Shown here: piece after piece, positions 17,716-51,359 of the stretch | Layout: every line of letters starts with the position of its first letter | Position numbering within the stretch: position 1 is the first letter of the stretch | NCBI GenBank assembly: GCA_035221665.1 | Contig: CM069131.1 | Coordinates: 27,280,001 to 27,344,000, forward strand | Source: Okamejei kenojei | Taxonomy: Eukaryota | DNA length: 64,000 nucleotides | Direction: 5' to 3' | Position numbers and translations under genes: made by a program | Notes under the pieces: generated by a model | What the model was told of the DNA's origin: nothing | What the model saw: only the letters and a program-made list of their open reading frames with translations | The model's database searches: none

Positions 17716-19653
17716 CTGCGTGGCTAGTGCAGCACATTACGAGCCATGCGGAACAATCGCTCCCAAACACCGCCGCGATGGTACCCTGCTGGGGGTTAAA
17801 GTACCACCTTATCTCTCGCTGGAGCATAGCACTCTGGATCGTATCCTGATTCAAGCCATTGAGTGCTTCTCTCAATTCTCTTTAAATAAATAAAATTTGT
17901 GCTGATCTTAAAGATGAAACTTAACCTCGTTGACAGATGAATCTTCATAATACTTGGATGTAGGAGTCTGTGTCAAGTGTAGGTGCAACTTCAAGATATA
18001 CTGCCCTGCTTGCCATGCAGGTGAAGATTACACCATACCTTTTAACAAGACTTTGTCTACTCTTGATCGCTATAGGACCAAAGTAGTCTATTCCTACATC
18101 TGTAAATGGAGGTTTGTCTGGTAGAATCCTCTCCAGGGGCAAGTCTGCCATTTTTTGTTCCCCAACTCTTCCTCACTGTCGTCTACACCCAACACAGTCT
18201 GTTATGACCGTTCTTGCAGCAGAGTTCGCTTTGATAATCCAGTATCTTTTACGGGGGCGAGTCAGCATATGATTTCTTCCTCCATGTCCGAGTTGTTCAT
18301 GGATAAGTCGTAACAGTAGTGTTGATATGTGAAGGTCCGAGAGAATAATAAGATGTTTGGCTTCTTCAAACATCGCAAGCCTATTCAGGCAACCACCTAC
18401 TCTCAGAAGTCCTTTATCCAGCACCGGATCTAGCTTGTACAAATGACTGCTGCCTTTGACACCATTTTTACCAGCTTCTAGTACTGATAGCTCTTCTTTG
18501 AATCTTTATTATTGACTGAAAGAGATGACTGTGCTTTCTGTTTGGAAAGGACCTTCAGGACATAAACACATAAACGGAGTGTTGCTTTAAAGACTTGCAT
18601 CTCTCTATCAACTTTTTCCTTTAGTTTGCCAGGATCTTTTTCAAAGCTATTCACAGCAGTTTGAATCTCCTTTCTTTTTCGAGTCAACTGCAAGAGTGTT
18701 GTCCTTACTTTAAGAAGCCAAGCTACAGCAGTCTTCAGATTCCTCCATGATGAGAAATAGGTGATCAGAGAGTCTGTGAGGTTCACTGGGTCCTTGACGT
18801 TGACGTTCATTGTGATGTCTTGCTTGATTTCTGGATCATTGGCAGAGATTGCAGATTCCAAGTGAAGCTTCGGCCATTCTCTCTCTGGCTTACAGAGAAA
18901 CTCTGGTCCATTGATCCATCTCTTACAGCTTAAGAAGCGGTCTGCTGTTAGTCCTCTCTCTAGAGGCTTCATCTGCAGGATTTTCCTTTGTGTCAACATA
19001 TCTCCATTGTGGTATATCAGTAGCATCCCTTACGCAAAAGATCCTGTTTGCTACAAATGTTTGGAAGTGTTTGGTTTTGTTGTTGATGTACTTAAGCACT
19101 GTTGTGCTATCGGTCCAGAAGATGGATTTGTCCAATTGGAGCTGTAATTCTTTTTGCAGCATTGTGTCAACACTGACAGCTAGAACTGCAGCTGTTAGCT
19201 CCATTCTAGGATCGTCATTTGTTTTAATGGAGCCACTCTGGCTTTTCCTATTATGGATGCAACATGCACTTCTTTGTTATCATCTTCCAGTCTTAGATAT
19301 GAAACAGAACCGTAGCCACTTTCGCTTGCGTCTGAAAAGTGGTGCAGCTGTGCATATCTGATTTGCGGGCTGCATGCACCAGTCAACTTTAAATTCCACC
19401 ATCTTGTTGAGATGTGCTAACCATCCTGTCCATCGCTGAGAGAAGGTTTGCGGAATGGTTTCATCCCATCCGAGTCTTTTCTTAGAGAGCTCCTGCATAA
19501 TCGGATTGGCTGGCAGAGCAAAGGGTGCTAGAAATCCTAAAGGGTCGTATATAGAGCTGACCACAGGCAAGATGCTCCGTCTTGTGTATGGCCATTACTG
19601 TGCAGCAATTTTGAACTTGAACACATCTGTTTCAATGCACCAGTGCAATCCCA

Positions 19654-19707
19654 GGGGTGGAAGATTGCAACCTTCACGTGGTCCGCCCTGTTTCGACTAA
19701 TGCAATC
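19654..19707 (+). ncRNA. Predicted minimal HDV/CPEB3-like self-cleaving ribozyme
   Basis: P1 GGGGUGG/CCGCCCU (G1-U wobble), P2 GAUUGCA/UGCAAUC, P3 ACC/GGU, L3 UUCACGU, short P4 loop, J4/2 CUAA. The helix order is that of the HDV nested double pseudoknot. Folded by eye, activity untested. Confidence 0.78.
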
Positions 19708-19790
19708 AACTCGACGTGCACAAACAGAAGATCAAATAGTACAAGTTGTCCTGCAACTTTAGGCTGTGCACGCCACACGAAAGAAGAAGA
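19654..19790 (+). mobile_element. ~140-bp non-autonomous retroposon with 5' HDV-like ribozyme and (GAA)n tail (copy A)
   Basis: Inserted in the BEL element. 12-bp TSD AGTGCAA(T/C)CCCA at 19642-19653 and 19791-19802. A homologous copy lies at 29007-29150. Confidence 0.85.
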
Positions 19791-21421
19791 AGTGCAACCC
19801 CAATGCTCTTTCCATTGGCAGATTGTCCTTGTTCAAGTCCAACTCCCTGGTCTCCTTGGTTCTGTTTTCTTATAGAATGGATGCCAATCCAGCGCGGCTG
19901 TTGCTGATCCACTTTGACAGCATGAATCCTCCCATTTGGCAGAGGGAAGTCAGGTCTCTTGCCATTTGAACTGTTTCTTTTTCCGAAGGCATGGATTTTA
20001 AGCAATATTCTACATGGGTTGTTCTTTACTGTGTTTGTCACCTCTGCTGGAAAGTGAGCTTTGCTGTCTTCAGCAGTCATCCTCAATGCAAAATTTGTAC
20101 AACTTGGTGACGACAGGCTCCAAAAAGATGTACCTTAATCCGGTATCCAACAAGATCTTGCTGCACATCATCCTCGGGCCACCACAGGAATCGCAGATAG
20201 TCAACATGCTTTTCTGATACCTTGACATGATGAAACATTTCCCTGATATCAGCCATCGCAGCAACCGGTTCTTATCTGAATCTGATGAGAACTGCCATAA
20301 GTGAGTTGGTAAGGTTGCACCCTGCAGCAGTTGGCAGTTGTGATATTCCTTTGACGACTGCACGGCAGTCAAAGACTATCCTTACGGTTCCTTTTCTTGA
20401 GTGATTCACCCCGTGGTGAGGGATGTACCAGAGCGCTCCATCACTTCGATTCAGTTGGTCCACTGGTACCATTTCAGCATAACCATTGTCAATCATTTCT
20501 GTGAGGAAAGAAGTATATTCATCATGAAATTTCTTATTCCTGCGTTTCAGGCTCTGGATGAGCTGCTCTGCAATGCAACGGTTATTTGGCATGCTGATGC
20601 TTTCTTGTTTGAAGGCAATAGTGTCCATCTGCCATCTTTGCTGAACAATTCATAATATCCAAGAATTTTACCTCGTCTCTGGACATTTCCTCTGTTTCCT
20701 TGCTGGCTCTTTCACTGAAGTCGTGATTGTATTGTTTGACCGGAAGCTCCTCTAGGTTTACAATGGATATTCGATTAACAGCAGCAGCAGGGCAGCCATT
20801 TTCATCCCTGCTGTCCTTGCCTCTTCTCAGGGGACATAGGTGGCCCACCCTAGTAGGATCCTCATGGCATACGGTCCATCCCCTTGGCTGTTGACCAGCT
20901 CTCAAGATTCTAATACCTTTGAAGCATTTGTACCAATGAGTAGGTCAATGCCAGAGTCTATTTCAGGAATCTTGATATCCTTCACCAATCATATCATATC
21001 TTCGTCTGGGAATGTTTAGCTGATAAACAGGCATGGTCTTATGTGTGAACACATCTGATAGTTGAACAAAATCGTCTTTCTCCTGACTAGATATTTCCAA
21101 ACCTGAGATATGATGACAGATCACAGGCTTCACTTGGTTCATGGTACGCAAGAAAATATTGGTCCTTTGTCCTGCAATGTTCAGCCTTCCTATCAAGCTT
21201 TCTGTGCAAAAGGTAGTTGAACTTCCATGATCCAAAAATGCGTATGTTTGCAACACTGTGTCCCCCTTGTGGCTCTTTACCTGTACTGGTACAATGGAGA
21301 AGATGCAGGTTTCATCACCAGCCCCAATATGCCCATATTATGAGGTAAGGGAACAATGTTACTCACAATTGGCTTCTCATTCTGTTGTGTGTGCTCCGGC
21401 TTCTTCTCTTTGTCCTTTTCT

Positions 21422-23995: not shown

Positions 23996-24152
23996 AAAGA
24001 CATAAAGTGCTGGAGTAGCTCAACGAGCCAGGCAGCATCTTGGAGAACATGGATAGGTGATGTTTTGGATCAGCTATCCATGTTCTCCGGAGATGTTGCC
24101 CGACCCGTTGAGTTACTCCAGCACGTTCTTTTGTAAACCAGCATCTGCAGGT
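23996..24152. mobile_element. Penelope-derived palindromic element (diverged)
   Basis: Arms gtgctggagtagctcaacgag..ggagaacatggatag and ctatccatgttctcc..cgttgagttactccagcac. Confidence 0.75.
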
Positions 24153-33130: not shown

Positions 33131-36100
33131 CTTGGCTGCATAAGCTGCACCAGTGATCATGGTTGAGCTTGTGACCGGAGGGAAATCCACAGGCTGGGGT
33201 TGTGGGGTGGAGCGCAGCCTCCATTACATTCAATAGAAGAGAATCAGGTTTCATCAGATCCAACAGGAGGTGATCGGAGAGATCCGTAGGTTCCAGGAGG
33301 TCTGTCACTACATGGAGCACGTGGATTGCCAGCCCCCAGCAATGGCCCACACTCACAGTGCAGGCCTGAGCCTCACATCTCAGCACCAAGCAGCTTCACC
33401 GTGGTCATGGCCTGCTCTGCACCAGGCCTCAGGCCGGCGTCTCCACATGAATTTGTTGCTGGGGGAGCACCAGTGGAAGGCAGGGCTTTGGCCCAAGATC
33501 ACAGCACCCAGGATCCTGGCACCGCACGTACAGTTGCAAGGAGCAGAGCATCTTGTACCCACATTCCCCGCACGGTAATACACAGCACATTCAAGGTGGG
33601 AATTCAGGCCAGATTCCCAGCGCAGCAGCCCTCGTCTTTTTAAAGTAAAGGGACAAATGCACCAGTGAGTCCCTGGACTCCAGGACTAAGAGGCTACAAA
33701 GAATCAAAACTCTGTGGGTAGCAACAGGCAGGGCACCTCTGTGCTTCTTCTGTGAGCGAATACGTTGCTGCCTGCCATCATTTTAATTGCATACTTCATG
33801 GCAGAAACCAAGGAACCTCAACAATCCATGAAATGGTGTCTTTTGACATGATTATTCATTGACATTATTTTAAATAAACAAAAGAAGCTTCCACCAGTAA
33901 ACTTTCCATCATTATTCAGTTGGTGATGACCAGCTATTAATGATGAACAGTTAAGAGGAATAGTCTGTAATCTGGAGAATAGTATGAGAGAGCTAGGCCA
34001 TCACTAGAATTGACAAACAACCTGAGAAGTAAAAGTCTCCGCACAGAATTCTATAGTAAAGGATTGGGTCTGCACAGATAACCATTAGGTTCTATTAGAT
34101 TCTGCTAGTTCTAAGGAAGAGCACCGTTTCTGTTAGTCTCTTTTGTTCACAGAATTATTGAATGGCCTAAATAGGGTATAGATTGAGATGGATGTTTCAA
34201 GAGAGCTCTCCATTATGATGTGGAAGCAGTCTGCGTGCTCTGTAACCCCTCATTGAGATGTCACAGTACGTGCGGACTTAGTTACTGTCAGCCCATACTG
34301 TGTAGCCAGGCAGTGGTAAGCTAGGCAGATGAAAATGTTGTTGCAAAATTGAAAGATTTTGAGACAACTCAGAAAGGTAAAGTCACAAGAGCTGACACTG
34401 TTACTGAAAATGAAAAGAAGAAAAATCCTATACACATATATTGTAAGTCAGTGGGAGACAGGAATGTAGTGAAAGCAGAAGCAGAAATATGGAAAACCAT
34501 ATCAAATATAGTTGGTTATGACAGACATCCAGTAATTTACTGAATATAATATATGTCGACTCTCCTGTATAAATTTTGAAGGCAGCCAATGGGACCAAGT
34601 CACTAAAAGCAAAGAACGCAGGCAGCACACGGCATCTGCACCTTCCGCAACAACCTTCTATGCCCTCACTGTGTCTGAGTGTGAGCCTCCAGGGCTGGTT
34701 TGCCAGTCACACTCCAGCTCACCTACAAAGACTGTAAAACTGGCATCATCAAACTCAATGGTCAACCGGCATACGGCATTTGATAGATGATAGTTGATAG
34801 TTGGTAGTTGGTAGTTGAGAGGAGTTATGTGGCCCAATTAAGTTTTACATGAGGTTATCCCAAGAAGACAGTGATCAAGAATATGTAACTCAGTGTATTG
34901 GCAACTATGAAGATAATTATGTTGAACGAACAACAGTGGAACTGGCTGGGACACCAGATTTGTAGGAAGCAGACCTGATGATCTACTGGAATGATTAGCC
35001 TCTGCAGGGAGATTTCAGATTCAAGTTGCAGCTTGCAGTGGAGTGTTCAGTGAACAAAGAAAGAAAAGGAACACATGAATTAATCTTTATTTGAATTTCT
35101 AACTACACATCAATCTACATAGTTTTAATGACTGTATCATTTCATGAATACAAATCGTTTAATAATTAGTATTTTTTTTAAAGGGGAAATTATGTAGTGT
35201 ATATGTTTACCTTAGTAACTGTATCATGTGGTAGGATTTTGATCCATTGCTGTACCTAGAGAATACTAGCTGGTTGGGAATTGCTGTGTTCAATAAATGA
35301 TGTGGTGTTAATAGCTCCAACTCTGTTATTGACCTTTGTTGTAGCAGGACTATAACTACAATGAAAAGTAAAGGGCCTGATTATGTACTAAATAATTTAG
35401 AGCAGCAGATTCCAGCTTCAACCCTTAACATGTGTCAGCTGAGCTGACGTCAGCAGCCATGGCAACGGCAGCCGTAAATGAAGGAAAGGTGAAAATAGTT
35501 GGAATTTGCTCTCTTCAGTCTGATACCGAGCAGGACATTCTCTTGGCCACCTGGATGTAATGTCTCCCTCTTGACAGCTGTGGAAATAAACTCCAAGTCA
35601 GCACTTTTGGGACGAAAATTAGAGGGATGAACAAGATATGGAGGTATTTGTACATTAGTATTTGCTGAATTAATACAATTTGCTTGTTTTCTCAGTTTAT
35701 TTCCAAGTCTGGAATATAGTGAAGCTCCCGCTTAACTTTTGCTGCTTGCTTTTGTGCTTCCTGCCCTCACTCCGACATATAGCACACTCAGTGTTGTCGA
35801 TCTCAGTGTCTCGTATCTGACTTGTTTGGGATTAGATTCCCAATGGACTCCATCACATTGTACAGTTGCCTTGCTGCCAATATTGCTATTTTATGAATGT
35901 CAATCGTTGGAGAAACTTCTCATTAAAGATGCAGCCTCACCCCACTATTCCACCAATCCCCCACCCCCACGACGAGAGGAAGTCCACCAGATTGACCGAT
36001 GTGCAGCCGAGCGTGGCCAATGAGATAAGGACTGGAAAGCTGCACTTTTTATTTATTGCCAGTGCTAGTGTCGAGTAACACGTTCATGGATAGGAAAAGA

Positions 36101-38530
36101 TTAAAGGGATATGGGTCAAACAAGGGGAAATGGGACTAGTTTAGGTGGGGCATCGTTGGCATGGATGAGTTAGGCTGAAGGGCCTGTTTCTGTGCTATTT
36201 CACTCTCTGGCTGCAGCAGTCCATCTTGGTTTTGTACGAAATTCAGGTATCTGCTGTCTCACGTGACTCCTCCTTCTGAATGTTAGTCTTAGGTTCATAC
36301 ACAGAGTTCTAGGATTCAGCAAGGAGTTAAATCCTGTTTGCAAGACCAATCTCCCTCATATCCCATTTGTTGTCCATCAATGACTTGATTCCTCATTGAG
36401 TTTCTGGTGGAATCAAGTCCTGGTGTCCTGTGCTGTATAACTCTGACTCTGAGAGGATGCATCTTCTTCATATTCACCCTGCTAAGACTGCTTAGGATCT
36501 TTGATGTTTCATTTGGTGAATGTCCAGAAAATATACATTATGTATGTTTTGTAATCTTAATTCAAAATCTACGATAATAAAAAACATTCAGGGTCAATAG
36601 AAATCAAAGTCAGAATCCAAAGAACAGTGGATTTTATAGGCCTGGGAGAGTCAGCAGGCTGTACAAAGCAGTTTTGAATAGCTGTAAATATTGCCTCCTA
36701 CTTAGTTAGCTCAGGTGGTGATTGATTAATCTACAGTTTTGACAAAAAAAATCAGTAGCTTGCATAAAACAAGGAGTTGGTTGCTTCATTCATTCTGAGA
36801 TATTTGTCGTCATTTTAGGATATTGATACAGTGTAGCTCATATGCTGTCATGGTCTTATTTTCCTTCTGACATCTCCTTCCTCAGTATTTGCTTCTACTA
36901 TTAGAAACATCAAAATATGTCCATTGTTCACTATCATCTATTTACCTCCGACTGAATGGCTGCTATTTGAATATGCCTACCACGTCATTTGCATTGGAAA
37001 AGATAGCAGAAGGCAAACCTTTATTTAAATCTCTCATTCTTGATTTGCCAGAAGGAGGACCAACTTGATTTTGTCACGTCATGAAATGTGTACCAATTAC
37101 TCCCTTTTGAAATAAGCAGTATTCTATGCATATTAAAATAACTCTTTCACATTAGTAAGATCGCAGCAGAAACCTAAAAGCAATGGCAGGACTTGGGCCT
37201 ATAAACACCTGAAAGAAATGTACAATATTATACTCTCAGTCACCCAGCATCCATGGGGTGTCAAATGCATAAATATGTTGGTCAAATGAGAATTCAAAGA
37301 ACCTAATAATAACTGTGGTCAAGACGGGCATGTGTTTAGTGACCAGTTGGGCTACACCTCAAAAGGATGCTAAATTTATGGTGACAATGTTGAGATGAAA
37401 TAGTAAGATAATAAAACTTAGGATGCCACCATATAACTTAAATTATAGCAAGAGGACAAACCATTGAGTTCCAGTTACTTTTTGAAAAGGCAGTGGTGTT
37501 AAATTTACAATTTAGTTTCTTTCTGTATTAAATTTGAACATTCGGATCTCTGTCTATCCATCTAAATAAGGTTCCCGACCCAAAATGTTACCTACCTCCA
37601 GAGATGCTGCCTGACCCGCTGAGTTACTCCAGCTTTTTGTGTTTATCTTCGGTTTAAACCGTCTTTGTTTGTAAACCCGCATCTGCAGTTCCTTCAGAGA
37701 TATTGTCAGAGTCCTCATGTTTGGCGTCTAGGCAGTGAAGGCCAGTTTGTCACACACTCTGTATCAGAGGTTGGATGATAATCTTGGGATCGATCCTCAG
37801 TGAGTAAGAGTGCTGCAAGTTTAAAGGGGTAGGTTTGAAAAAAGGGTATCGGTAAAATGATTAATGTTGCATCAAAAATATTTGATCATTAGATTCAGAG
37901 AGGGTAGGTATTCAGACGGATCCTTGTGGATTGGAAATTGGGAGGTCGGGAGAAGAATAAACAATTTTATGGTCTTGCTTCTGACGATTAATGCAAGAGA
38001 TTTAACATATTGTCAGACGTTTTACGTGTCCCAAAGGCAAGGCAGAAGACCAACCATATTTGGACGACTTAAGACAATTAAAGACTGGAAAATGTAGGTA
38101 TCTATTGTAAAGGAAGAAGGGAGGAAAGAAAGAGATGAGAGGGAGGAACGGGCATTGCTATGAACCCATTGTACCTTGAAGACAACTCAAAGTACATTAT
38201 TATTTTATTACTTTAGAACATAATAACTTGAGAAACAGATGCAGGGTAAGCCAATTGGCCCCTCAAGACCATGGTTTATTCAGTATTGTGACTGGATAGT
38301 AGTGCATTCAAAGGTTTGGATGAAAGTCCCGGTTTGATCATAGAGTATGTGGAATTAAGGGCAATATGCTTTCATTAATTGAGTCTACTTTTAATGTTTC
38401 TCATCAATTTACTCTCATATTATATCTTGTCTTTCTTTCTAAATTTGTTGGTCCTTCGGTGCTGAGTGCTAAAATTGCACCAAATTGTCAGATTAATTGT
38501 ATTTGGAGAATGTAACAGGAAAGTGGAGCA

Positions 38531-39338
38531 CAAGTTCAAGTTCACATTTATTGTCACATGCACCAATTAAGGTACAGAGAAATTTGAGTTACCATGCAAC
38601 CCTACAATCAAAAAGAAGACAATACAGAATAGAATTTAACATAAACATCCACCACAGTGGAATCAACATTCTTCACTGTGATGGAAGGCAATATCGTTCA
38701 GTCAATCTTCCTCTTTTGTTCACCCGTGGTCGGTGCCATCAACCCTCCGTAGTCGCCGATACAGATGGCCCGATGCACAAGCCCTCTCATCGGGATGATC
38801 GAAACCCCGACATCGGGACGGATCGGAACACACACTCCGCGGCTTGGAGTTCCCGTATCAGCCACTTTCTTACCAGAGACCGTGGCTCTGTGATGTTATA
38901 GGCCGCAGGCTGGCGGTCGAAGCACTTCTTCAGGCGATCCCCAGCAAGGGATTCCAGGCTCCGCGATGGAAAGTCCACATCGTGCCTGCGGCTAGAAGCT
39001 CCGCAGACCGTGGCTTCATGATGTTATAGTCCGCAGATCGGCGACGGAGCACTTCTTCTGACGATCCCCGGCAAGGGATCGCCTCGCTCCGCGATGTTAA
39101 AGTCCCACCACGCCTGCTGCTGAAGCTCTGGGCCGGTCTCTGAGAAAGGCCACACCAATCCAGTTGTTAGGCCGCGAGGGGGGTGAAGATGCGACAAAGT
39201 GAAAAGTCGCATCTCCGTCGAGGTAAGTGACTGAAAACGGTTTCCCCCTATTCCCTCCCATCACCCCCCACACTAAACATACATTTAGACATACTAAAAA
39301 AGGTTGAAAGGACGAACACGCTGCTGGCGAGGCAGCCA
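38531..39338 (-). mobile_element. Non-autonomous GC-rich retroposon (partial second copy at 48143-48812)
   Basis: (TGAACT)n tail with AATAAA on the minus strand. 3' region shared with 8256-8790. Internal ~130-bp imperfect repeats (ccgtggct..tgatgttatag..gcacttctt). Confidence 0.6.
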
Positions 39339-39724
39339 CCCAGTGACCTGTTCAAACATGAGAGATTGGGTGGTGTTGATGTTCAAAGGGACCTGGGTGT
39401 CCTTGTACAATGTTGTTCTACAACAACATGCAGGGGTAGCAAGTGATTAAGAGGGATATAAGCATGTTAGTCTTTGTTTGGAGAGAACTGAGGATAGGAA
39501 TAAGGAATTGAATAGAGTTTGGTGAGATTTCAACCAAGATTATTTAGTCAGTTTTGGTCCTTTTTCCTAAGAAATAATGTATGCCATGGAAGGGAACAGC
39601 CAAGATTAATGAGACTAGTTCCAGTACTGGGGTAGGAAAGAACTGCAGATGCTGGTTTAAATCGTAGGTAGACACAAAATGCTCGAGTAACTCAGTGAGA
39701 CAGGCAGCATCTCTGCAGAGAAGG

Positions 39725-41382
39725 CAGGGCCGGATTTAGATGAAGAGAGGCCCTGGGCTATTCCACTTGTCAGGCTCCTCCCAATCCCCCACCCCCACGA
39801 CGAGAGAAAGATGGAAGAGTCCACCAGATTGACACCGGTGTGCAGCCGAGCGTGGCCAATGAGATAAGGGCTGGAAAGCTGCGCTTTTTATTTATTGCCA
39901 GTGCTGGTGTCGAGTTATCGGCTTAAAACACTGTTATTATAAAATGGAGGGCAAGGAAAATTACTGAAGTGTTGTTTAGAGACTACAGTGCATTGTGACA
40001 GCATATGTAAGAAAGGCGTATGACAGTGTCAAAAATATTATACACCAGGCCTGTACGAAGCTTTTCAAAAAGGGGGGTGGTATGGTAGGATTACAAAAAC
40101 TTTATGTGAAATAAGTGCAAGCAGCGCATATCACAAGCGTGAAGCTCAAAGACCCTTGCGGCCGGCGTCTTTTGATACTCTCTGGTGCATTCTGATCCTT
40201 ATTTTGGAGCATTTTTGCACCAAATTTATGACCAGTATTCAGAAATAATTTCGGTTGAGTCAAGAGTAATGAGTGGTTGGAATGGGATGATTGGAGTCAT
40301 TGTTGTATACATTTTCTTTATTGAAGAATTGAAGCTATCCTTGTTTTAATAATCAAGTTGTATTGTAAAATGTTATGTAAAATGTTATAAAGGAGCATGC
40401 AAACACTGCAAATAAAATACTGTACGTTTTAGCAGCAAATAAAATCTTTTTTTAGAAAGTTTTGTGTGTTGATTTGATTGCCTGTTACTGTTCGACTGTG
40501 TTAGTGTGCTGATTAAAAATATGATGCAAAATGAAAGTCGCAAACTATGGAATACATAATTTTCAGTATTGTTATCAAGGAAAATAAAGTAGTTCCAATT
40601 GTTTGATATTATTCATATGGAGGAGAAAATATAATTGCTCTAAAACCTACCTTAATTTTGCAATCTCACTAAAGATAATCCCCCTTTCCCTCTCCCCCTC
40701 CTCCTTCCCCCTCCCTCCCCATCTCTCTCTCCCCTCCCCCACTCCCCCTCTCTCTCTCTCTCTCCCCCTCCCTCTCTCTCCCACCTGTGTCAAGCCCCCC
40801 TTTTCCCCCTCTCACAACCTCCCTCTCTCTCCCTCCCTCCCCCTCGCTCCCTCCCACGCAGCGAGGCTCCGACTCCGCGCCGCAGACACTGCAGCCCCCC
40901 CCCCCCCCGGCCCGGAGAAACGGGCACTCCCGCAACACAATATTCCACTACTTCCCTGGAGTAGACACCTAGGATCGTTGGTAGACACGAGGCATCGAGG
41001 TGATTGTGTGGAGTGCAAATGGAGATCTGAACCTGCCCGGGCCCACTGCGCACGCGCGGAGAGACAGCGTCATTTTGCGTCGCTACTGCGTCACCGGCTT
41101 CCCCCAACTGCGCAGGCGCGGATGGTCACAATTTCTTTCCCCAAATCTTCCAGCGGGCCGGAACCAGAATTTTGGGTTATTTCCGTCAAAGCACTCCAAT
41201 TTTTTTTTCTTAGGATTTTTTTTACTCTTGGAAATAAACACCTTGGCCGGAGGCCCCCTAGATTTTGAGGCCCTAGGCTTCAGCCTATGAAGCCTATGGG
41301 TAAATCCGGCCCTGCCGAGGCCCCCCTAGATCTCGAGGCCCTAAGCTTAAGCTTGTGAAGCTTATACGTAAATCCGGCCCTG
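39725..41382 (+). mobile_element. Non-autonomous hAT-type DNA transposon
   Basis: TIRs CAGGGCCGGATTTA and TAAATCCGGCCCTG. The right terminus is present twice (ending 41314 and 41382). No transposase ORF. Confidence 0.8.
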
Positions 41383-46538: not shown

Positions 46539-49500
46539 TAACACGTTCATGGATAGGAAAGGATTAAAGGGATATGGGTCAAACAAGGGGAAATGGGACT
46601 AGTTTAGGTGGGGCATCGTTGGCATGGATGAGTTAGGCCGAAGGGCCTGTCTCTGTGCTATTTGACTCTCTGGCTGCAGCAGTCCATCTTGTTTTTGTAC
46701 GAAATTCAGGTATCTGCTGTCTCACGTGACTCCTCCTTCTGAATGTTAGTCTTAGGTTCATACACAGAGTTCTAGGATTCGGCAAGGAGTTAAATCCTGT
46801 TTGCAAGACCAATCTCCCTCATATCCCATTTGTTGTCCATCAATGACTTGATTCCTCATTGAGTTTCTGGTGGAATCAAGTCCTGGTGTCCTGTGCTGTA
46901 TAACTCTGACTCTGAGAGGATGCATCTTCTTCATATTCACCCTGCTAAGACTGCTTAGGATCTTTGATGTTTCATTTGGTGAATGTCCAGAAAATATACA
47001 TTAGGTATGTTTTGTAATTCAAAATCTACGATAATAAAAACATTCAGGGTCAATAGAAATCAGAGTCAGAATCCAAAGAACAGTGGATTTTATAGGCCTG
47101 GGAGAGTCAACAGGCTGTACAAAACAGCTTTGAATAGCTGTAAATATTGCCTCCTACTTAGTTAGCTCAGGTGGTGATTGATTAATCTACAGTTTTGACA
47201 AAAAAATCAGTAGCTTGCATAAAACAAGGAGTTGGTTGCTTCATTCATTCTGAGATATTTGTCGTCATTTTAGGATATTGATACAGTGAAGCTCATCTGC
47301 TGTCATGGTCTTATTTTCCTTCTGACATCTCCTTCCTCAGTATTTGCTTCTACTATTAGAAACATCAAAATATGTCCATTGTTCACTATCATCTATTTAC
47401 CTCTGACTGAATGGCTGCTATTTGAATATGCCTACCACATCATTTGCATTGGAAAAGATAGCAGAAGGCAAACCTTTATTTAAATATCTCATTCTTGATT
47501 TGCCAGAAGGAGGACCAACTTGATTTTGTCACGTCATGAAATGTGTACCAATTACTCCCTTTTGAAATAAGCAGTCTTCTATGCATATTAAAATAACTCT
47601 TTCACATTAGTAAGATCGCAGCAGAAACTTGAAAGCAACGGCAGGACTTGGGCCTATAAACACCTGAAAGAAAAGTACAATATTATACTCTCAGTCAGCC
47701 AGCATCCATGGGGTGTCAAATGCAAACCCGCATCTGCAGTTCCTTCAGAGATATTGTCAGAGTTCTCATGTTCGGCGTCTAGGCAGTGAAGGCCAGTTTG
47801 TCACACACTCTGTATCAGAGGTTGGATGATAATCTTGGGATCGATCCTCAGTGAGTAAGAGTGCTGCAAGTTTAAAGGGGTAGGTTTGAAAAAAGGGTAT
47901 CGGTAAGATGATCAATATTGCATCAAAAATATTTGATCATTAGACTCAGAAAGGGTAGGTATTCAGACGGATACTTGTGGATTGGAAATTGGGAGGTCGG
48001 GAGAAGAATGAACAATTTTATGGTCTTGCTTCTGACGATTAATGCAAGAGATTTAACATGTTGTCGGACATTTTACGTGTCCCAAAAGCAAGGAAGAAGA
48101 CCAACCATATTTGGACGACTTAAGATAATTAAAGACTGGAAAATTCTTCACTGTGATGGAAGGCAATATCGTTCAGTCAATCTTCCTCTTTTGTTCACCC
48201 GTGGTCGGTGCCATCAACCCTCCGTAGTCGCCGATACAGATGGCCCGATGCACAAGCCCTCTCATCGAGATGATCGAAACCCCGACATCGGGACGGATCG
48301 GAACACACACTCCGCGGCTTGGAGTTCCCGTATCAGCCACTTTCTTACCAGAGACCGTGGCTCTGTGATGTTATAGGCCGCAGGCTGGCGGTCGAAGCAC
48401 TTCTTCAGGCGATCCCCAGCAAGGGATTCCAGGCTCCGCGATGGAAAGTCCACATCGTGCCTGCGGCTAGAAGCTCCGCAGACCGTGGCTTCATGATGTT
48501 ATAGTCCGCAGCCGGCGACGGAGCACTTCTTCTGATGATCCCCGGCAAGGGATCGCCTCGCTCCGCGATGTTAAAGTCCCGCCACGCCTGCTGCTGAAGC
48601 TCTGGGCCGGTCTCTGAGAAAGGCCACACCAATCCAGTTGTTAGGCCGCGAGGGGGGGTGAAGATGCGACAAAGTGAAAAGTTGCATCTCCGTCGAGGTA
48701 AGTGACTGAAAACGGTTTCTCCCTATTCCCCCCCATCGCCCCCCACACTAAACATACATTTAGACATACTAAAAAAGGTTGAAAGGACGAACACGCTGCT
48801 GGCGAGGCTGCCACCCAGTGACCTGTTCAAACATGAGAGATTGGGTGGTGTTGATGTTCAAAGGGACCTGGGTGTCCTTGTACAAAGTTGTTCTACAACA
48901 ACATGCAGGGGTAGCAAGTGATTAAGAGGGAGATAAGCATGTTAGTCTTTGTTTGGAGAGAACGGAGGATAGGAATAAGGAATTGAATAGGGTTTGGTGA
49001 GATTTCAACCAAGATTATTTAGTCAGTTTTGGTCTTTTTTCCTAAGAAATAATGTACGCCATGGAAGGGAACAGCCAAGATTAATGAGACTAGTTCCAGT
49101 ATTGGGGTAGGAAAGAACTGCAGATGCTGGTTTAAATCGTAGGTAGACACAAAATGCTCGAGTAACTCAGTGAGACAGGCAGCATCTCTGCAGAGAAGGC
49201 AGGGCTGGATTTAGGTGAAAGTCCCTGGGCTATTCCACTTGTGAGGGTCCTCCCAATCCCCCACCCCCACGACGAGAGAAAGATGGAAGAGTCCACCAGA
49301 TTGACACCGATGTGCAGCCGAGCGTGGCCAATGAGATAAGGGCTGGAAAGCTGCGCATTTTATTTATTGCCAGTGCTGGTGTCGAGTTATCAGCTTAAAA
49401 CGCTGTTATTCTAAAATGGAGGGCAAGGAAAATTACTGAAGTGTTGTTTAAAGACTACAGTGCATTGTGACAGCATATGTAAGAAAGGCGTATGACAGTG

Positions 49501-50233
49501 TCAAAAATATTATACACCAGGCCTGTACGAAGTTTTTCCAAAAGGGGGGGTGGCATGGCAGGATTACAAAAATTTTATGTGAAATAAGTGCACACAGCGC
49601 ATATCATAAGTGCGAAGCTCAAAGACATAACATTTCCCCCTCACACATCCCCCCATCTCTCTCCCTCCCTCCCTCCCTCTCTCTCGCTCCCACGCAGCGA
49701 GGCTCCGACTCCGCGCCACAGACACTGCAGCCCGCCCCCCCTCGGCCCGGAGAAACGGGCACTCCCGCAACGCAATATTCCATTACTTCCCTGGAGTAGA
49801 CACCTAGGATCGTTGGTAGACACGAGGCATCGAGGTGATTGTGTGGATTGCAAATGGAGATCCGAACCTGCCCGGGCCCACTGCGCACGCGCGGAGAGAC
49901 AGCGTCATTTTGCGTCGCTACTGCGTCACCGGCTTCCCCCAACTGCGCAGGCGCGGATGGTCACAATGTTTTTCCCAAAACTTCCAGCGGGCCGGAGCCA
50001 GAATTTCGGGTGATTTCCGTCAAAGTGGAAATTCTGATAGCACTCCAATTTTTTTTTTTCTCTGTTTTTTTTTACTCTTGGAAAAAAATACCTTGGCGCG
50101 GAGGCCCCCTAGATTTTGAGGCCCTAGGCTTCAGCCTATGAAGCCTATAGGTAAATCCGGCCCTGCCGAGGCCCCCCTAGATCTCGAGGCCCTAAGCTTA
50201 AGCTTGTGAAGCTTATACGTAAATCCGGCCCTG
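46539..50233 (+). repeat. Segmental duplication copy 2 (native flanks, three internal deletions)
   Basis: Colinear with 36076-41382 but lacks about 37269-37672, 38094-38669 and 40153-40810. The left flank continues a CR1 fragment and the right flank carries the TSD. Confidence 0.9.
49200..50233 (+). mobile_element. Non-autonomous hAT-type DNA transposon with 8-bp TSD
   Basis: TIRs CAGGGCTGGATTTA and TAAATCCGGCCCTG. TSD AGAGAAGG at 49192-49199 and 50234-50241. Inserted in a Penelope-derived palindrome (about 49110-50340). Confidence 0.88.
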
Positions 50234-51359
50234 AGAGAAGGAATGGGTGATGTTTTGGGTCGAGTCTGAAGCCCCGAAACGTCACCCATTCCTTCTCTCC
50301 AGAGATGCTGCCTGTCCTGCTGAGTTACTCCCGCATTTTGGGGTGTTTGCTTTATGAGAGATTGTGGGGAGTGCACCCTCAGGTTTAGAAGAGGGTAGGT
50401 GTCCTTGTAACATACAAAATTCATAAAGGGACTGCCAGACTAGATGTAGAAAGACATTTCCTCCAGCCTCATAGCCCCACAACAACACATGACAGAAGAG
50501 TCAATGAGCAGTGGGCACAGTGTCAGAAAAAGTACTATGCTCATTAGGACTGACATGAGGGGAAATTCCTTCATTCAGTGGGTCATGGGTCTTTGGAATT
50601 CTTTATCCTGGGTCTGTGGAAGCTCAGTTATTGATTAGCCTCCTAATCTGAGATCAAAATAATTATAAACCAAGGATAAGGGAGTAATGGTGGAAATTAT
50701 TCTCAGGTATAAGATTAATGGTGATTTTTGTGAATGGTGGGGCAGAGCCAAAGGCCTGGATGGCCAACCCCTGCGTCAGTTTCATGTCTTGATGTAATGA
50801 ATATGTAGAAGCTGCTCATTTTTTGTTAGTAAGGCCTCAAAAACGAGAAATAAATGAGAAGTTTGTTTTAGTGGAGTTTGTTGAGCACTAAGTATTGGGC
50901 ATGTCATTTAGCTAGGTCCCTTGCTTTTTCAAACAGTGTCTTAAGATCATTTCTGCACAAATGAAATGGAAAGAACATCTGACTGAAAGCTTCTGAATGT
51001 TTATTTTTAAAGAGCTGTCAAATTGCAAGGATTCTTCTGATATGCTTTAAGAAATATAAAGCAATTAGCCTACTTATCCCCATGACCTTGACATTTGGAA
51101 CTATTCAGTGAATTGATTTTAATTCATTATGATTCTGACCTGACCAGATGGAAATGATCGGTACCATTTAAAACTGAGCAGGGAATTACCCCGTTGTGTC
51201 TCTATACCAAGTTGGCTAACTGTTACTTTAAATTGTAAGCAGGCTGGAGGTCTGTTCCAAGTAAGTGTTGCCCCCTTTATGTAACCAGATTAGTCTCTAA
51301 ATAAAATCATCAAGATGTGATCTCCAATTTTCATCTGGGAACTGCTATGGTTTCTCTAC

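Follow-up and report, generated by a model that had tools for sequence, protein, structure and literature searches.

Positions 19654-19790 (+) of the window (the whole 64,000-nucleotide stretch of Okamejei kenojei DNA analysed here) hold a 137-nt member of a young, non-coding retroposon family with roughly 10,000-80,000 copies; it is inserted antisense within the decayed pol region of a BEL/Pao LTR-retrotransposon. This host site lies outside the element on the minus strand, with approximate limits of 17945..20649, and contains Pfam matches to Peptidase_A17 (18926-19594) and Integrase_H2C2 (18176-18505). The copy is bracketed by 12-bp target-site duplications (TSDs) at 19642..19653 and 19791..19802 (+), which differ by one mismatch, and comprises a 54-nt head (19654..19707), a non-coding body (19708..19779) and a (GAA)n tail (19780..19790), all on the plus strand. 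An earlier, sequence-only reading of the locus had already placed the start of the element at G1, directly after the duplication, and its end in (GAA)n. The body is predicted to form a long stem closing an inner hairpin (-15.5 kcal/mol in a single folding, without shuffle comparison) and has a Vingi-like terminal motif at its end. A second copy, absent from that reading, lies on the minus strand at 29150-29012; it belongs to another subfamily, is 88% identical, has its own 12-bp TSD and carries one P1 mismatch.

Nucleotides 1-54 (19654-19707) contain a complete HDV-like fold minus P4, with cleavage predicted directly 5' of G19654. The double-pseudoknot order P1-P2-P3-L3-P3-P1-P1.1-(P4)-J4/2-P2 is present throughout, all on the plus strand: P1 (19654-60/19683-89; 7/7 pairs, with a G1-U wobble) is separated by a 2-nt J1/2 from the 5' strand of P2 (19663-69/19701-07; 7/7 pairs), followed by P3 (19670-72/19680-82; 3/3 pairs), a 7-nt L3 (19673-79) and G37-U38 (19690-91). 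A 5-nt loop then stands in P4's place, before C-U-A-A and the 3' strand of P2, with the putative catalytic C (C44) at 19697. All 17/17 pairs are in register, as first described, with one correction: what had been called a vestigial P4 is this 5-nt loop, P4 itself being absent. The conserved HDV core is present (G1 wobble, L3 U..C..G, J4/2 C-N-A-A), and P1.1 consists of one G-C plus U-U only, like that of the CPEB3 ribozyme. At 19675-19680, L3 and the following base form a 6-nt palindrome; this exceeds the 4-nt palindrome of CPEB3, which dimerises CPEB3 ribozymes in crystals (bioRxiv 2022.09.22.508989).

Reality of the fold

When nt 1-54 were shuffled by mononucleotide, 0/200,000 sequences paired at all 17 places in register, and a generic short-J1/2 HDV descriptor returned the 19654 site as its sole match in 464 kb, both strands. 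The Rfam HDV and CPEB3 models, to which the sequence-only reading had pointed, leave the element below cut-off: a scan of the whole window gave no match at the element head, and in a local scan HDV-F-prausnitzii (RF02682) spanned exactly 19654-19707 at 16 bits against a gathering score of 44 (E 0.84), with no match from the CPEB3 model (RF00622). Such a chance-level Rfam score would suit a conventional Pol III SINE, or else the truncated tail of a LINE, in which the fold is coincidental, as would a stretch overlapping nt 37-46 that resembles the B-box consensus with two mismatches. Set against this are the shuffle and descriptor controls, the covariation between families and the fixed 5' end (28/30 copies) described below, and the lack of a tRNA head noted at the outset: ARAGORN found 0 tRNAs in the window, and no tRNA, 7SL or 5S-type Rfam match falls at the element. 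This explanation is highly improbable and largely refuted, and on these controls we take the HDV-like fold of nt 1-54 to be real.

The family in the genome

In the 2.76 Gb of genome searched (1,141 contigs), an exact 35-nt head pattern had 4,525 matches and a 3' pattern 5,487, with 0 for the reversed-pattern controls. The 400 kb of blocks that the analyst picked contain five copies, four of them whole and one partial, for a copy number of ~34,000 (95% range 11,000-80,000); by a second estimate, which is biased low, it is ~9,700. Copies are dispersed and without coding capacity, with target duplications of 10-13 bp and (GAA)n tails, and fall into two subfamilies, each 3-4% off its own consensus. 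One apparently longer copy (L161) was rejected as a normal copy split by another repeat.

A TSD of at least 8 bp lies at the boundary in 25/30 of the best matches. When 30 copies were taken in genome order by the 3' pattern alone, 28 reached nt 1 and two were truncated, 24/30 had a TSD and two shared one flank; three of the 28 full-length copies carried a substitution in the first bases. Copy 5' ends do, then, fall at G1, as had been surmised. Short elements are usually full length, so this pile-up alone is no proof of cleavage. The base preceding G1 was T in 55/96 copies and G in 6/96. Contig loose ends peaked before 19654 in three of four sequencing runs (67, 33 and 18), which were found in a search that drew on 12 sampled words and returned 24 rows with nine organism labels and a metagenome; because all four runs consist of contigs, no RNA start, strand or level is readable from them. 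Two metagenome pattern scans gave 0 matches.

Conservation and covariation of the head

Covariation across genomic copies, which the sequence-only reading had looked to, is absent within the family: 103 copies yielded a single compensatory pair, against 33 one-sided and 51 broken ones, because copies decay neutrally. C44 is kept in 101/103 copies and the whole core is intact in 61/103. The only head positions polymorphic at 10% or more are 8 (J1/2) and 45 (the second base of J4/2), both unpaired, giving 2/54 head positions against 11/73 in the body (Fisher p 0.03) and 0/34 among paired positions (p 0.01), in a test that covers two or three lineages and copies partly selected by likeness to the window copies. 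Low head polymorphism would suggest selection on the source lineages, few as these are.

A genome search with the Rfam CPEB3 model placed 30 of 59 scored candidates above the gathering score, at up to 66.8 bits and on many contigs, against 0 in 14 control genomes. Twenty above-threshold matches were retrieved and belong to several repeat families. Across seven families, the 38-nt core aligns gap-free in a common 7-2-7-3-7-3-7-2 layout and, with one representative each, 13/17 pairs have changed on both sides, in a count for which P2 3' strands were fitted and the heads of L257 and L261, being off the fixed register, were left out. For P1 and P3 in fixed register, 6/5,040 family permutations reach the observed pairing, a figure that is no strict probability because the families are related. 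Covariation, on this count, resides between families and not among copies. With the TSDs, tail and 5' ends, it upholds the original description of a non-autonomous retroposon headed at G1 by an HDV-like fold.

Several of these families merit description. L247-L250 represent a second element of ~170 nt with TSDs, a (GAA)n tail and a P4-less head with different P1, P2 and P3; it had three matches in the 400-kb sample, and further members lie at L108:1841-2007, L113:1940-2113, L119 and L022. In 5/6 of its full heads, a target T precedes four G, as if G1 were often lost on insertion. The closest heads to mammalian CPEB3, P4 stem included, are those of L233, L234, L238, L240 and L243, whose shared sequence ends ~20-40 nt past the ribozyme, with no tail in the retrieved stretch. 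A third CPEB3-like variant (L239, L244, L245 and L251) has a longer P4, and upstream sequence is common to L245 and L251. Lastly, L252-L254 and L257-L258 form a young Vingi-type family in which the head carries an additional base ahead of P3 and P4 is long; its protein is 87% and 82% identical to two teleost proteins, with the next at ~50%, a hint of possible horizontal transfer.

The LINE partner

Six of the 59 CPEB3-model matches sit directly in front of sequence matching the N-terminal end of a single LINE protein, and three sampled heads are followed by the start of a LINE ORF whose relatives have an endonuclease and reverse transcriptase (RT) and no RNase H match. Several LINE families of ~3.1-3.4 kb share this plan: one ORF with endonuclease and RT, (GAA)n, TSDs of 10-13 bp and HDV-like heads. 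Pieces of three LINE copies and three database relatives (910-1052 aa) match PF14529, PF03372 and PF00078 in Pfam, with no match to RNase H families in either set. We assign these LINEs to the Vingi type from this architecture, from protein motifs that we take to be those of Vingi and from the likeness of their heads to those of named Vingi elements. The Vingi clade is described as having a single ORF of ~1000 aa with APE and RT and no RNase H (PMC13708176). An internally deleted ORF of this type lies at L237:195-575, its best relatives, which include a sea-urchin protein, being 65-73% identical over part of the ORF.

The core of the element is co-linear with the heads of Vingi-type LINEs. In one such LINE (L255/L256) the HDV fold is complete, P3 is the same as in the element, and the 3' terminus is the 16-nt motif-plus-tail seen in subfamily 2; the head of another (L259) is the best profile match to the element head (E 0.003). 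The sequence-only reading had proposed a search for a LINE sharing the 3' end and GAA tail; none of the LINEs examined here matches the body of the element beyond the terminal motif. Three exclusion-pattern searches for a parent, which by design would miss most unrelated flanks, returned 27, 246 (100 of them examined) and 8 matches, among which no alternative flank came up repeatedly, and an RT-motif scan of retrieved loci returned no RTE and no Vingi. The likely helper clade, judged from sequence, is Vingi; that the element is Vingi-mobilised is something we infer, since no LINE family shares its body and no parent emerged from the exclusion searches.

A second candidate helper is an RTE-like LINE family with a (GAA)n tail, detected through PF20049 (presumably a marker of the RTE clade) with 908 first-look candidates. 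The element could then be a hybrid, Vingi-derived at its head and copied by an RTE LINE in the manner of R2/R1 SIDEs; hybrid SIDEs do exist (PMC3414825), the RTE family is abundant, and the Vingi parent was not found in the exclusion-pattern searches. As a parent, this family was rejected, its 3' end being unmatched to the element profile in 20 loci (best E 1.8), and the terminal motif of the element matches a Vingi-type LINE instead, which leaves the hybrid distinctly improbable. The RTE-like copies (L192-L211) end in a small hairpin plus (GAA)n. A partner search with PF14529 was likewise set aside: the 30 best loci were one family and 20 more were a mixture that we label, on our own assumption, Nimb-like, CR1-like and unclassified, the 30 being Nimb-like. 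L162-L191 are a young LINE family of this presumed Nimb-like type, and one copy has an open frame of 1,276 aa.

A proposed route of mobilisation

We hold with good confidence that the element is a Vingi-dependent, non-autonomous (SIDE-like) retroposon whose HDV-like head cleaves at G1 and whose RNA is copied by a Vingi protein. A copy would be transcribed, probably by read-through from host transcription, and the 54-nt head, to go by its anatomy and covariation, would cleave directly 5' of G1 to give an RNA of ~130 nt with a defined 5' end. A Vingi endonuclease/RT, the presumed helper, would bind the 3' terminal motif and tail, and target-primed reverse transcription would generate the 10-13 bp duplications. 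The head would be a P4-deleted member of a lineage of Vingi 5' ribozymes that apparently includes the mammalian CPEB3 ribozyme as well.

The weak P1.1 and lack of P4 are a risk to this scheme, as they may count against activity of the head, and C44 could become trapped if nt 37-44 folded into a small UUCG hairpin. In vitro activity has been seen for HDV-like ribozymes without P4 (PMC10879173), and P1.1 is open in CPEB3 crystals (bioRxiv 2022.09.22.508989). Agam-2-1, with a J1/2 of 0-1 nt, is nearly inactive (PMC4908430); the corresponding worry over the 2-nt J1/2 of the element is weakened because CPEB3 also has 9 nt between P1 and P3. A rival view, in which the ancestry is unchanged, makes the head a ribozyme that is slow or inactive and has been retained as a Pol II internal promoter or protein-binding site, with transcription starting from G1. 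Besides its weak P1.1 and absent P4, this would accord with Pr77 of L1Tc/NARTc, which according to published abstracts is both ribozyme and internal promoter, with the inactivity of some well-folded SIDER heads (PMC4035085) and with the frequent loss of G1 in the ~170-nt sister family (5/6 full heads start with target T). The Pr77 parallel also makes the 'promoterless' label of the sequence-only reading a tentative one. Yet from family to family the stems covary and the catalytic C and J4/2 adenines persist, a pattern better explained by selection on RNA structure than by a DNA promoter; that P4 is missing from two families whose stems differ also speaks against this view. We regard it as unlikely, and continue with self-cleavage and copying by Vingi as the preferred account.

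The CPEB3 ribozyme as a probable Vingi head

The CPEB3 ribozyme has been linked with memory. It was said in the sequence-only reading to share the L3 of the element and the GU after P1, and this is so: CPEB3 (RF00622) and the element have the same numbering over nt 1-38 (U20-U26, C18-G28, G37, U38), with identical L3 and P1.1, and 22/38 positions equal the Rfam CPEB3 consensus by eye. In the element, however, the stems have been replaced via compensatory changes, P4 has been lost and the CPEB3 model finds no match, and it is multicopy and mobile whereas CPEB3 is a single intronic locus. The window element is, by these comparisons, a distant CPEB3 cousin; the genome contains other Vingi heads that resemble CPEB3 much more. 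By eye, the L232 head, whose P2 carries two compensatory changes, equals the Rfam CPEB3 consensus at 54/67 positions; for the L233 head the count is 44 of the first 46.

Named Vingi elements of Repbase start with similar heads, according to the supplement of PMC5786205, which gives the 5' ends of Vingi-2_Gav, Vingi-4_Crp and Vingi-1_BF and a stretch of Vingi-2_SPur. Gharial Vingi-2_Gav matches the CPEB3 consensus at 38/40 positions of nt 2-41 and 14/14 of nt 54-67, or 52/54 outside distal P4, and alligator SINE2-1_AMi bears the CPEB3 P4 stem (PMC5786205 supplement). The main text of PMC5786205 nowhere mentions CPEB3 and does not name Vingi among the clades that carry ribozymes. A 2021 paper (PMC8233481) states that no CPEB3 ribozyme was known beyond mammals; traces of Vingi in the human genome are on record as X12_LINE (PMC5753468).

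As stems are free to vary in an HDV-like fold, such identity argues for descent and not convergence, and the heads of amphioxus and sea urchin Vingi would set the direction as element to gene. The mammalian CPEB3 ribozyme is thus probably a domesticated Vingi head. With fair confidence, we propose that a Vingi 5' end inserted into the intron before the marsupial-placental split, that fish, crocodilian, amphioxus and sea-urchin Vingi heads are the missing outgroups, and that the window element is a P4-less miniature of the same lineage. The mobile origin once hinted at for CPEB3-type ribozymes thereby gains stronger support from CPEB3-like Vingi heads than was first guessed. HDV-like ribozymes were reportedly found in lancelet and sea urchin by Webb in 2009; these may be Vingi heads, in which case some of the link may already have been published. 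One proposal is that HDV took its ribozyme from CPEB3. If our reading is true, Vingi elements become a rival donor alongside CPEB3, and their heads give the CPEB3 ribozyme both outgroups and a concrete origin by exaptation.

Relation to known systems

The general design is already known from SIDEs, NARTc/RIME and non-autonomous Vingi. Vingi-1_EE of hedgehog and bipartite non-autonomous LINEs (PMC5786205) are likewise short and non-coding, with a LINE-type 5' end, TSDs and, at the 3' end, a LINE-type terminal motif plus microsatellite tail. NARTc/RIME/SIDER (PMC4035085) and R2 SIDEs (PMC3414825) are non-autonomous retroposons with a 5' HDV-like ribozyme, which frees them from a co-transcript; their context is trypanosomes or insect rDNA, whereas the element is a dispersed, high-copy vertebrate retroposon of 137 nt with a ribozyme of 54 nt. 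Minimal HDV-like and theta ribozymes share the lack of P4 and the short J1/2 and L4, but nearly 99% are in tailed phages, often beside tRNAs (PMC10879173), whereas the present one, with its CPEB3-type L3 and weak P1.1, stands at the 5' end of a eukaryotic retroposon. In a review, certain LINEs and SINEs are said to employ HDV-like ribozymes (PMC6765202). What is apparently new is a P4-less ribozyme heading vertebrate retroposons, together with the CPEB3 link; a search of mostly open-access literature, with subscription journals, Repbase and patents largely outside its scope, returned no paper that describes the element family or derives CPEB3 from Vingi.

With the element, minimal P4-less HDV-like ribozymes, which earlier descriptions place in phages and metagenomes, become high-copy residents of a vertebrate genome, and Vingi would join the LINE clades with 5' ribozymes. 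If the account holds, this is one of the smallest retroposons, with a putative self-cleaving head of 54 nt, and Vingi proteins, now under development for gene insertion (PMC13708176), may find in it a minimal cis-template.

Two further observations concern the remainder of the window. Hairpin (inverted-repeat) forms of a common short repeat lie at 706-892, 24004-24127 and 50233-50299, and chance miRNA and snoRNA Rfam matches in the window are due to such forms. A stretch of ~3.7 kb is duplicated between 36076-41382 and 46539-50233 at 92-97% identity.
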